Positions 33,273 to 34,501 of a stretch of 55,486 nucleotides of DNA are shown here, one piece after another (position 1 is the stretch's first letter; every line of letters starts with the position of its first letter). The notes beneath the pieces were generated by a model. It was not told where the DNA came from, made no database searches, and saw only the letters and a program-made list of their open reading frames with translations. Made by a program: the position numbers and the translations under genes. The stretch lies in the NCBI GenBank assembly GCA_964496855.1, contig CAZCAU010000003.1, positions 1 to 55,486 of the forward strand. Reading direction: 5' to 3'. Source of the stretch: an uncultured Desulfurococcales archaeon (GTDB lineage Archaea > Thermoproteota > Thermoprotei_A > Sulfolobales > CAZCAU01).

Positions 33273-33938
33273 ATGACTAATAATTATATTGAGGCTACAA
33301 GCACCATGTGCAAACTCGGTGTATTTAGCACAGTTTATAGTAAGAACCAGGATCTGGTTAGAGTCTTGAGGGATATTTACGGTCAAGACCCTGTACATGG
33401 ATGGCCTCATATAATAAGAGTACTTTGTATTGAGTCAGAGATTATAGAAAACGAGTTCGGTAGCAAGGGTGTTGATCTAGATACGTTATTTACTGCAACA
33501 ATCTTCCACGATATAGGTAGAGTCTTCGAAGAGTCTCTCAAGATACATCATGCGAGAATAAGTGCTGAGATAGCCCGTATTTACTTAAGAAAGTCTCATG
33601 GAAGAGAAAAGCTTGAGAAAATAACTCATATAATTCTCGCTCATAGCTACTCACTAGGCGTTAAACCTGAAAGTCTCGAAGCAATTATTTTGAGTGATGC
33701 CGATAAACTAGACGCTCTAGGTGCTATAGGCTTATACAGAGCAATTGTAGACGGCGAACGCAGAAGGCGAGGACTTGATGGCACTATAAGCCATATAAAA
33801 GGGAAATTGTTAAGACTACCAACGATGTTATATACTGAGTACGCGCGAAAAACGGCTACTCACAAAATAAGTATACTTAAAGAATTCATTAGAATGATGG
33901 AAGATGAACACCCCATATTGCAGGATCTAGAGAAATAA
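33273..33938 (+). CDS. HD-domain metal-dependent phosphohydrolase
   Basis: HGWPHIIRV, FHDIGR, HHA, HS and DADKLDALGAIG motifs. Confidence 0.9.
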   Translation: MTNNYIEATSTMCKLGVFSTVYSKNQDLVRVLRDIYGQDPVHGWPHIIRVLCIESEIIENEFGSKGVDLDTLFTATIFHDIGRVFEESLKIHHARISAEIARIYLRKSHGREKLEKITHIILAHSYSLGVKPESLEAIILSDADKLDALGAIGLYRAIVDGERRRRGLDGTISHIKGKLLRLPTMLYTEYARKTATHKISILKEFIRMMEDEHPILQDLEK

Positions 33939-34104
33939 TATAAATCTCAGCTCAATAAGCAATACAGGGATGATCGGGGCCAGGATAGAGGATTAATAAA
34001 GATGACTGCTTCACGGACCGGGAGACCACTTCTCAACAAATAGAAACCGTCTTACCACTCTTCTTATTATCGAGATACTGCAAAGAAGTGGTGGCGGGGC
34101 CCCG

Positions 34105-34280
34105 TGGTAGCGGGGGGTGGACTTTCCCGGGGCAGATTACCGCCCCGTTTTGAACCACCGACCTCGGGTGCGACCCCTACTTAGAGGTGTGTCTCCGAGG
34201 CGGTTAGCCCCTTATGAGCTTCGCGGGGCGGAGTTTTTCTCCGCGCCTCCCGCGGGCTAACCAGGCTACCCTACCCCGCT
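34105..34280 (-). tRNA. initiator tRNA-Met(CAT) interrupted by four introns (34248-34220, 34212-34191, 34188-34169, 34148-34122)
   Basis: Joining exons 34280-34249, 34219-34213, 34190-34189, 34168-34149 and 34121-34105 gives AGCGGGGTAGGGTAGCCTGGTTAGCCCGCGGGGCTCATAACCCCGAGGTCGGTGGTTCAAATCCACCCCCCGCTACCA. This is a complete 78-nt cloverleaf with A1-U72, G11-C24 and three G-C pairs in the anticodon stem. Every junction lies in a BHB-like fold. Confidence 0.9.
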
Positions 34281-34319
34281 ACTTCTCCCCGCCAGTAGAA
34301 AACAATGTAACACTGGGGG

Positions 34320-34332
34320 TAATAAAGTTTTG
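34320..34332 (-). promoter_or_regulatory. BRE/TATA promoter of tRNA-iMet
   Basis: Minus strand CAAAACTTTATTA about 40-50 nt upstream of the mature 5' end, implying a leader of about 15 nt. Confidence 0.55.
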
Positions 34333-34339
34333 ATCAATA

Positions 34340-34501
34340 TTATTTATGTTTGGGATTTCTATTTTTACAATCATAATTTACTGGGTCTAAACCTAGTTTT
34401 TTGAGTTGTTGACACAGATTTTTTAATGGTATAACTGCTTTGCCCCCATACTCGTTTTCCAGTATGACAACATCTCCTTTTACAACAACCTTGACTTTCA
34501 A
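34340..34501 (-). CDS. small hypothetical protein (53 aa), not in the ORF track
   Basis: TTG start after GGGTGA. Translation: MKVKVVVKGDVVILENEYGGKAVIPLKNLCQQLKKLGLDPVNYDCKNRNPKHK. Confidence 0.55.
   Translation of the reverse strand: MKVKVVVKGDVVILENEYGGKAVIPLKNLCQQLKKLGLDPVNYDCKNRNPKHK

Follow-up and report, generated by a model that had tools for sequence, protein, structure and literature searches.

The window analyzed here, a stretch of 55,486 nucleotides (nt) deposited as contig CAZCAU010000003.1 of assembly GCA_964496855.1 from an uncultured archaeon, carries an initiator transfer RNA (tRNA)-Met gene on its minus strand, with the 5' end at position 34280 and the 3' end at position 34105. 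The gene consists of five colinear exons and four introns (Table 1). When the reverse complement of this region was cut into consecutive pieces of 32/29/7/22/2/20/20/27/17 nt and the exons were joined, a sequence of 78 nt was obtained, for which ARAGORN drew a flawless cloverleaf of tRNA-Met(CAT). This product has a 7-base-pair (bp) acceptor stem with A1:T72, a 4-bp D stem, a 5-bp anticodon stem with G:C at 29-31/39-41, a 5-bp T stem, and an encoded CCA (34107-34105). The introns lie at 30/31, 37/38, 39/40, and 59/60 in the standard tRNA numbering, and they account for 98 of the 176 nt (56%).

Archaeal initiator tRNA-Met (iMet) is distinguished by A1:U72 and by three consecutive G:C pairs at 29-31/39-41. 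Both hallmarks were found in the joined sequence, together with the CAT anticodon in a standard cloverleaf and orthology to the iMet of relatives; an elongator-type Met gene is encoded separately at C23:19122-19228. In a blastn-short search with the joined form, exon 1 matched the assembly only at this locus (32/32) and the same exon was present in relatives, and exons 4 and 5 were matched at 20/20 and 17/17 positions, respectively. All five exons are in colinear order on a single strand, within 176 nt, so this is neither a split nor a permuted tRNA gene, and the introns of the window gene (20-29 nt) contain no open reading frame (ORF) that could encode a homing endonuclease.

The first-pass annotation of this DNA, made by a model from the sequence alone, had called an initiator tRNA-Met gene of five exons and four introns of the bulge-helix-bulge type, and this is the only parse with which the anticodon stem is fully paired and the product equals the orthologues in sequence. 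All the sizes that it listed for the tRNA, the exons, the introns, and the intron share were reproduced by cutting and by ARAGORN, and its descriptions of the four splice motifs were recovered letter for letter by our script. To its anatomy we add that the gene lies on the minus strand, which it had left unstated. Its warning that standard scanners may miss the gene was also justified for two programs. ARAGORN in intron mode did not detect the unspliced gene in either the window or the 176-nt stretch, and Rfam did not detect it at the gathering thresholds; at E ≤ 10, positions 33900-34500 (601 nt) gave four chance matches, none of them to tRNA. With these tools, the genome would seem to lack an initiator tRNA.

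Table 1. Coordinates of the iMet gene and its flanking elements in the window, and of comparable loci in relatives.
Feature	Position	Strand	Description and basis
Exon 1, 32 nt	34249..34280	-	Positions 1-30: acceptor 5' strand, D arm, anticodon-stem 5' strand to G30
Intron 1, 29 nt	34220..34248	-	Site 30/31; motif script, relatives with same site and ends
Exon 2, 7 nt	34213..34219	-	G31 and anticodon-loop positions 32-37 including CAT
Intron 2, 22 nt	34191..34212	-	Canonical site 37/38; a boundary 1 base to the right is equivalent
Exon 3, 2 nt (AC)	34189..34190	-	tRNA positions 38 and 39; needed for full anticodon-stem pairing
Intron 3, 20 nt	34169..34188	-	Site 39/40; motif script, pattern search, covariation, minimum-free-energy fold
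Exon 4, 20 nt	34149..34168	-	Positions 40-59: anticodon-stem 3' strand, variable loop, T stem 5' strand, most of T loop
Intron 4, 27 nt	34122..34148	-	Site 59/60, T loop; motif script, relatives with same site
Exon 5, 17 nt	34105..34121	-	Positions 60-76: end of T loop, T stem 3' strand, acceptor 3' strand, A73, CCA
TATA-like TTTATTA, putative promoter	34320..34326	-	40-46 nt upstream of mature 5' end; read from sequence
Leader GGCGGGG, putative leader-trailer helix	34287..34293	-	7-13 nt before tRNA; exact complement of trailer
Trailer CCCCGCC	34093..34099	-	6-12 nt after CCA
T-rich TTCTTT, putative terminator	34087-34082	-	3' of trailer; read from sequence
ORF-bearing 59/60 loci in relatives	L124:818-1453, L014:785-1420, L126:802-1458	-	
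ORF-bearing 37/38 loci in relatives	L115:1619-2608 (-), L005:1732-2907 (-), L013:361-1464 (+), L119:346-1458 (+)		
Split iMet pieces, G021	L131 (G021:C2:38600-38900) with L130 (G021:C2:36100-36500)	+ (L131), - (L130)	
Split iMet pieces, G043	L133 with L132		

Splice motifs of the four introns

We scored the splice motifs with a script at boundaries that were set by the exon sequence and not by a motif search. Bulge-helix-bulge geometry was present at all eight predicted cut sites, with at least one flanking helix for each of the four introns. In intron 1, the central helix is CGCG/CGCG (4/4 pairs), the bulges are GG^A and AA^G (the caret marks the predicted cut), and the inner hairpin has 8 pairs with one bulged C. 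Intron 4 has the central helix TTCA/GGAA (3/4 pairs plus A.G), the bulges AA^A and AG^T, an inner hairpin of 8 bp, and the 5-bp T stem as its outer helix. The central helix of intron 2 is CTCA/GGAG (3/4 pairs plus A.G) and its inner hairpin has 5 bp. The outer helix of intron 2 is the anticodon stem itself, of which 1 contiguous pair is available in the primary transcript, 1 when intron 3 alone is taken out, and 5 when introns 1, 3, and 4 are taken out.

The motif of intron 3 is partly built from another intron. Its central helix is AGAC/GTCG (3/4 pairs plus A.G) with the bulges AC^A and CA^C, its inner hairpin is short (3 pairs), and its outer helix, with 7 contiguous pairs, is formed by CCTCGG inside intron 2 and CCGAGG in exon 4. 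The 5' strand of the central helix corresponds to the last four bases of intron 2, so that the segment CCTCGG-AGAC of intron 2 serves the motif of intron 3. In 200,000 shuffles of the 176 nt with random boundaries, a central helix of at least 3/4 pairs together with an inner hairpin of at least 3 bp occurred at a frequency of 0.56%, and this fell to 0.005% when an outer helix of at least 5 bp was added. In the minimum-free-energy fold predicted for the primary transcript, the acceptor stem is formed, as are the T stem with the hairpin of intron 4 and the outer helix and hairpin of intron 3.

Comparison with relatives and the two-nucleotide exon

We compared the gene with the iMet genes of other genomes of its order (325 genomes in the collection used). 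The exons were identical to an uninterrupted orthologue (G006, locus L016) at 74/75 positions, with an alignment score of 145/150. Thirty iMet loci were fetched from 61 genomes of the order, in which the gene is single as a rule, and 24 of them could be rebuilt: nine had no intron, four had one (at 59/60), two had two, six had three, and three had four. The other six (L015, L017, L018, L023, L024, and L029) are split genes or cut loci. Every one of the four sites is empty in some relatives, including G006 and eight other uninterrupted genes, and filled in others. The four-intron genes are the window gene and those of G049 and G056, to which a pattern search added G217, so the four-intron state is not unique to the window organism. 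In G049, the fourth intron is located near 64/65 instead of 59/60.

The intron boundaries are conserved among relatives, whereas the hairpins differ, with compensating changes. The site of intron 1 is filled in G053, G049, G032, G046, G056, G010, and G003 with introns that have the same ends but different hairpins, starting with (A/T)GG (AGG in the window gene) and ending with CCCGCGAA, and it is empty in G006, G059, G036, and others. Similarly, the site of intron 4 holds introns with different hairpins in G053, G032, G003, G059, G039, G020, and G036, which start with ACGG or a similar sequence and end with G(A/G)(A/G)A(A/G). A synteny route to these genes was tried and given up: the 39 loci around pyrB homologues held no iMet gene (spliced-alignment scores ≤ 81/150) and served only to name relatives.

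The position of the 2-nt exon required a separate analysis of the critical 44 nt between exons 2 and 4. With two deletions in this stretch, 99 solutions gave a full cloverleaf, and 14 of these reproduced the orthologous sequence exactly; the only difference among them was the choice of the internal C, CC, AC, or ACC that served as the tiny exon. The sequence of the gene by itself is therefore insufficient to place the micro-exon. A spliced aligner used alone was also rejected for this purpose, since it cannot place an exon of 1-2 nt and put a single C at arbitrary places; the placement consequently rests on comparison and on motif geometry. In G032 and G046, which lack intron 3, the canonical intron ends with CTCGGAGA(A/C) and is directly followed by ACCCCGAGG. 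In the window gene, intron 2 ends with CTCGGAGAC, followed by AC, 20 nt, and then CCCGAGG.

A search for the micro-exon together with the 39/40 motif found 16 of the 325 genomes, in 8 of 97 genera and in families f1, f3, f7, f8, and f10; the reversed pattern, used as a control, had no match among the same 325 genomes. In an alignment of the 16 genomes, AC is invariant, while the next base, the hairpin, and the last two bases of the intron all vary. The motif of intron 3 was paired in 96.8% of the alignment cells, and five pairs were changed on both sides; these values were reached by 0 of 500 shuffles and were best at slide 0. The central-helix pair that was left free by the search pattern, a C-G pair, is replaced by T-A in G138 and by T.G in G049. 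When genes were rebuilt with AC as an exon in 13 of the 16 genomes, leaving out G215 and G216 (cut by the locus ends) and G115 (the same as G029), ARAGORN called tRNA-Met in all 13, four of which have four introns.

The competing description of this stretch is a gene with three introns, in which a single intron of 42-44 nt interrupts the anticodon loop, no 2-nt exon exists, and the anticodon stem has a 31:39 mismatch or is shortened. This description avoids an awkwardly small exon, and it is the one that the aligner prefers when the intron penalty is heavier (query 33-40, an intron of 42 nt, and query 41-61, with one mismatch). However, the boundaries of introns 1 and 4 are unique, and any single deletion between exons 2 and 4 gives at best 20/21 cloverleaf pairs because position 39 is mismatched with G31. 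The base that would then occupy position 39, one of the two letters after GTCG, is A in the window gene, and other genomes of this architecture have G or T there, whereas all uninterrupted orthologues have C39; a conserved tRNA position should not vary in this way. Furthermore, the single long intron has no motif at its ends, whereas dividing the stretch into two introns gives two motifs with flanking helices and covariation, and G032 and G046 have AC as exon sequence contiguous with CCCGAGG. We consider it very improbable that the gene has only three introns.

Reliability of the sequence and a proposed splicing order

Two further explanations concern the DNA itself rather than its parsing. 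The window is contig C3 of a metagenome-assembled genome (MAG) of 1.54 Mb in 105 contigs, with 95% completeness and 4.5% contamination, and a chimeric or mis-assembled contig, or a C lost from the CCC run, could imitate extra introns. The exon sequences are indeed common to co-occurring archaea, and many foreign contigs match them. This explanation can nevertheless be set aside almost completely. The identical sequence is present in contigs of two runs labelled hydrothermal vent metagenome, one with a single 221-nt record over 34085-34305 without any difference (X2) and one with two overlapping records identical over the gene (X1). Runs X3 and X5, from other studies, contain a variant strain in which all four introns are present, in one piece, and the three-C form ...GTCGNN^CCCGAGG recurs in 16 genomes. 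A single X5 record (record 20) extends over all 501 nt and differs by 10 substitutions and 5 one-base gaps. Every difference listed for the variant strain inside the gene falls in the introns: at 34125, 34134-34136, and 34141 in intron 4, at 34191 in intron 2, and as deletions at 34185 (intron 3) and 34234 (an A in the loop of intron 1). Through the difference at 34191, AGAC becomes AGAT, the form also found in G049, and through that at 34125, a T-A pair becomes T.G. The other explanation is that the locus is a decaying or unprocessed copy, and that the working initiator tRNA comes from another gene missing from the assembly. The first-pass annotation had raised the matter of a second iMet gene; none was found in the assembly by blastn-short with the joined form, but the MAG is incomplete, with many tRNA genes at the ends of contigs and about ten isoacceptors not recovered, which leaves room for a second, uninterrupted copy. 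A decayed copy is nevertheless unlikely, as the exons are intact, with the near-identity to the orthologue given above, the strain differences are intronic and keep the motif pairs, the architecture recurs in several genera and families, with some of the genomes 96-99% complete, and a single iMet gene is the rule in the 61 genomes of the order compared above.

Some observations weigh against a spliced, functional gene with these exact introns. Intron 1 has no outer helix, only an inner one, and introns 2, 3, and 4 have the relaxed form, in which the central helix consists of only 3/4 standard pairs with A.G at one end. With such weak central helices, the case for the introns rests on the flanking helices and the covariation. 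The minimum-free-energy fold lacks the weak central helices of 4 bp and has part of exon 1 paired with intron 2, a pairing that is not conserved in relatives, and we give the fold little weight. The search pattern fixed the outer helix and two central pairs of intron 3, so that their invariance in the alignment is uninformative, and the relatives are not independent of each other. In addition, none of the runs listed for this stretch is on record as RNA, a point that also favors a decayed copy. Taking all of this into account, we consider it highly probable that the locus is a working iMet gene whose transcript is spliced, in a crenarchaeon of the Ignisphaera/Acidilobaceae/Desulfurococcaceae group that occurs in hydrothermal-vent metagenomes.

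This placement of the organism is based on PyrB, which is approximately 56-63% identical to proteins of Ignisphaera, Acidilobaceae, Desulfurococcaceae, and Desulfurococcales MAGs; no 16S ribosomal RNA (rRNA) was present in the assembly. The first-pass annotation had placed multi-intron tRNA genes mainly in Thermoproteales, and the host does not resemble that group. The organism is alone in its family and genus in the genome collection.

The assembly encodes the enzymes that splicing would require. A 185-amino-acid (aa) ORF encodes the alpha subunit of EndA (TIGR00324, 108.8 bits), and a second, weaker paralogue of 170 aa has NCBIfam matches below the cut-offs whose descriptions include "subunit beta"; its best PDB matches are 3p1z_A, 3ajv_A, and 2zyz_A, which we take to be crenarchaeal EndA beta subunits. 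RtcB is also encoded (573 bits; C8:27472-28779). The alpha subunit maps to the region C21:14487-14741 and the beta-like paralogue to the region C8:30417-30650. The genes for RtcB and the beta-like EndA are 1.6 kilobases (kb) apart on the same strand (C8:27472-30650, minus). This enzyme set fits an endonuclease of the alpha/beta heterotetramer type, which reviews have linked to non-canonical and multiple introns (PMC4090602).

Based on the pairing within the precursor, we infer an order of intron removal. The gene would be transcribed as one precursor of approximately 200 nt, from which EndA alpha and beta would excise the four introns at their bulge-helix-bulge motifs, and RtcB would join the exons. 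Three motifs could form in the primary transcript: that of intron 1 with its CGCG/CGCG helix, that of intron 4 with the T stem as its outer helix, and that of intron 3, for which the 3' end of intron 2 (CCTCGG-AGAC) would pair with exon 4 and with the 3' end of intron 3 itself. CCTCGG cannot serve the inner hairpin of intron 2 and the outer helix of intron 3 simultaneously, and the strict motif of intron 2 needs introns 1 and 3 to be gone. Introns 1, 3, and 4 would therefore be removed in any order, and the canonical intron 2 last. Such an order would keep the 2-nt exon attached to a larger RNA throughout, so that it would never be a free dinucleotide. There is a precedent in tRNA-Ile(UAU) of the red alga Cyanidioschyzon merolae, for which reverse transcription-polymerase chain reaction (RT-PCR) showed that removal of the canonical intron follows that of the two outer ones (Soma et al., 2013; PMC3728597), and the tRNAscan-SE 2.0 paper states that closely spaced introns may need successive removal (PMC8450103). 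One intron of the C. merolae gene lies in the D region, one at 37/38, and one in the T loop; the gene differs from the window gene in being a eukaryotic nuclear gene with three introns and no micro-exon, and the canonical-last order predicted here is established there.

Known multi-intron genes and the possible origin of the introns

In the 2014 review, archaeal tRNA genes are said to have "a maximum of three introns" (PMC4033280), and the 2021 tRNAscan-SE 2.0 paper also gives three as the maximum (PMC8450103). The first-pass annotation had named this limit correctly, but the novelty that it drew from the limit is dated. In three Asgard genomes, 228 introns were reported, with more than half of the genes containing several (Valentin-Alvarado et al., 2024; PMC11291895), and a preprint on Asgard families counted "up to five in a single gene" (Goswami et al., bioRxiv 10.64898/2026.10.13.758758, October 2026). 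That census was performed in silico by alignment to compact relatives and considered insertions of at least 10 nt; neither initiator tRNA nor nested introns or micro-exons came up in a term search of the preprint, outside its supplementary tables. A gene with four introns therefore no longer exceeds everything described. Outside GtRNAdb and SPLITSdb, in literature that included few subscription journals, we found no report of a four-intron tRNA gene in Crenarchaeota/Thermoproteota, no initiator tRNA with four introns, and no exon of 2 nt flanked by interlocked introns. It is the micro-exon, the motif that borrows from another intron, the order of splicing that this implies, and the series seen in relatives that make the gene a good case for experiments.

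Several known systems resemble this gene in part. The multi-intron tRNA genes of Thermoproteales (Pyrobaculum, Thermofilum, and Caldivirga; Sugahara et al., 2007 and 2008, cited in PMC4033280 and PMC8450103) also occur in hosts with an alpha/beta-type EndA, and there too a neighboring intron may have to be removed before the next motif can form (PMC8450103). However, they have at most three introns per gene, in contrast to the four found here in a host of the Ignisphaera/Acidilobaceae/Desulfurococcaceae group. The Asgard tRNA genes likewise have more than three interruptions per gene, and many of them were missed by standard annotators and detected through compact relatives. They belong to another phylum, in which interruptions are spread over the whole genome (2.2 per gene) and those that were missed lie mostly in the D arm, whereas the multiple introns of the window assembly are limited to one gene. 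None of the other tRNA genes found in the assembly has more than one intron (a single intron is present in 9 of 36 ARAGORN calls), and spliced alignment with 41 reference loci of G006 revealed no further multi-intron gene, although this census is incomplete, since about ten isoacceptors were not found and orphan 3' pieces lie at contig ends. Three of the break points, 30/31, 37/38, and 59/60, are the well-known ones of permuted tRNA genes and of the split ones found in Desulfurococcales and Nanoarchaeum: the permuted iMet gene of Thermofilum pendens has its junction at 59/60 and an intron at 37/38, the split tRNA-Lys is broken at 30/31, and the split iMet of Nanoarchaeum equitans at 37/38 (Chan et al., 2011; PMC3218864). 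Unlike in those genes, the pieces in the window are colinear on one strand within 176 nt and are therefore separated by introns.

Long, ORF-bearing introns occur in relatives at two of the four sites. At 59/60, introns of 0.7-1.0 kb encode a LAGLIDADG_3 protein on the tRNA strand, and three of four tested were above the Pfam cut-off (G056, 47.9 bits; G017, 52.5; G244, 52.0); the ORF of G046 (135 aa) had no Pfam match. At 37/38, introns of 1.2-1.4 kb contain ORFs of 285-395 aa, none of which cleared the Pfam cut-off among the six tested: two had sub-threshold LAGLIDADG_3 matches (18.8 and 16.9 bits), and four had no match. The window's intron 4 has an 8-nt prefix and a 12-nt suffix in common with the approximately 730-nt intron of G017, and its intron 2 has a 13-nt suffix in common with five of the long 37/38 introns, part of which is constrained by the motif of intron 3. 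Because relatives carry ORF introns of 0.7-1.4 kb at the same sites, the short introns of the window gene are probably ORF-less relatives of mobile introns. Archaeal rRNA introns of the bulge-helix-bulge type also carry LAGLIDADG homing-endonuclease ORFs. The 59/60 introns of the relatives resemble them in coding for LAGLIDADG_3 proteins and in having short and long forms with common ends, but the host gene here is a tRNA gene and the introns of the window have no ORF. No report of a LAGLIDADG or homing-endonuclease ORF in an archaeal tRNA intron was found in the literature listing that we searched.

In two relatives, G021 and G043, 30/31 is the exact point at which the iMet gene is split, and the two pieces lie on opposite strands, approximately 2.4 kb apart. 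Each piece lies behind its own AT-rich, promoter-like DNA, the flanks have 11-nt complementarity, and the ends of the pieces are the same as those of intron 1 in the window. The 3' piece also contains a canonical intron of 21-22 nt. The gene of G002 looks similarly split by its coordinates.

These observations allow a tentative proposal for the history of the gene, about which we are somewhat more doubtful than confident. The iMet gene of this order may have been a landing pad for mobile bulge-helix-bulge introns: LAGLIDADG-coding introns would have homed into the nearly invariant gene at 59/60, and probably at 37/38, and later lost their ORFs, leaving relics of 20-30 nt. A secondary intron at 39/40 would have colonized intron 2, with the 2-nt exon between them, which would have produced interlocked introns and an obligatory splicing order, and at 30/31 some genes would have gone on to split in two. 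If this is true, it would provide a concrete route for the arrival of archaeal tRNA introns, which the Asgard study of Goswami et al. left open, and a living series from an uninterrupted to a four-intron to a split gene for one essential tRNA.

The three-intron limit, which is embedded in reviews and in the logic of annotation programs, is thus exceeded outside Asgard archaea as well, in an essential, single-copy gene of a genome in which the other tRNA genes found have one intron at most. The anatomy described here makes two questions testable: whether EndA and RtcB are able to handle a 2-nt exon, and whether RNA folding alone can impose an order in which non-canonical introns are removed first and the canonical one last. 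The series from zero to four introns, with short and ORF-bearing forms at the same sites and one of the sites split, also offers a system for studying tRNA intron gain and the origin of split genes.

Two contigs, one in X3 and one in X5, have apparent joints: the former skips 34169-34211 with one letter between, the latter skips 34204-34248, and the sides are 20 and 22 letters long. Both are single contigs with short sides, and we read them as less interrupted iMet genes of other organisms rather than as DNA copies of spliced RNA.

The position of the TATA-like TTTATTA upstream of the gene agrees with that of tRNA promoters in T. pendens, which lie 30-49 nt upstream (PMC3218864). The leader GGCGGGG is kept in nearly all relatives, intron-bearing or not, and the trailer CCCCGCC is also found in G032 and G049; the helix that the two could form may stabilize the precursor or act in its processing.

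Elsewhere in the assembly, many tRNA genes lie within a few hundred bases of contig ends, as on C19, C36, C49, C60, C63, C68, C87, and C97 (no further in than the first 350 nt). Contigs seem to be interrupted at tRNA genes common to co-occurring archaea, which limits statements on tRNA content. The isoacceptors not found include those for Asn, Asp, Ile, Phe, and Tyr. Orphan pieces consisting of a T arm and a 3' acceptor strand were detected on the plus strand at C41:~70-140, C44:~190-225, C65:~700-745, and C87:~1010-1060, directly behind AT-rich DNA; no 5' half lies close to them, and they may represent the 3' halves of split tRNA genes or belong to genes with very long introns. A tRNA-Trp(CCA) gene with a 93-nt intron is located at C37:134-300 on the plus strand, which ARAGORN miscalls as Gln(ctg) with a 71-nt intron. 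In other archaea, the tRNA-Trp intron holds a C/D-box guide RNA.

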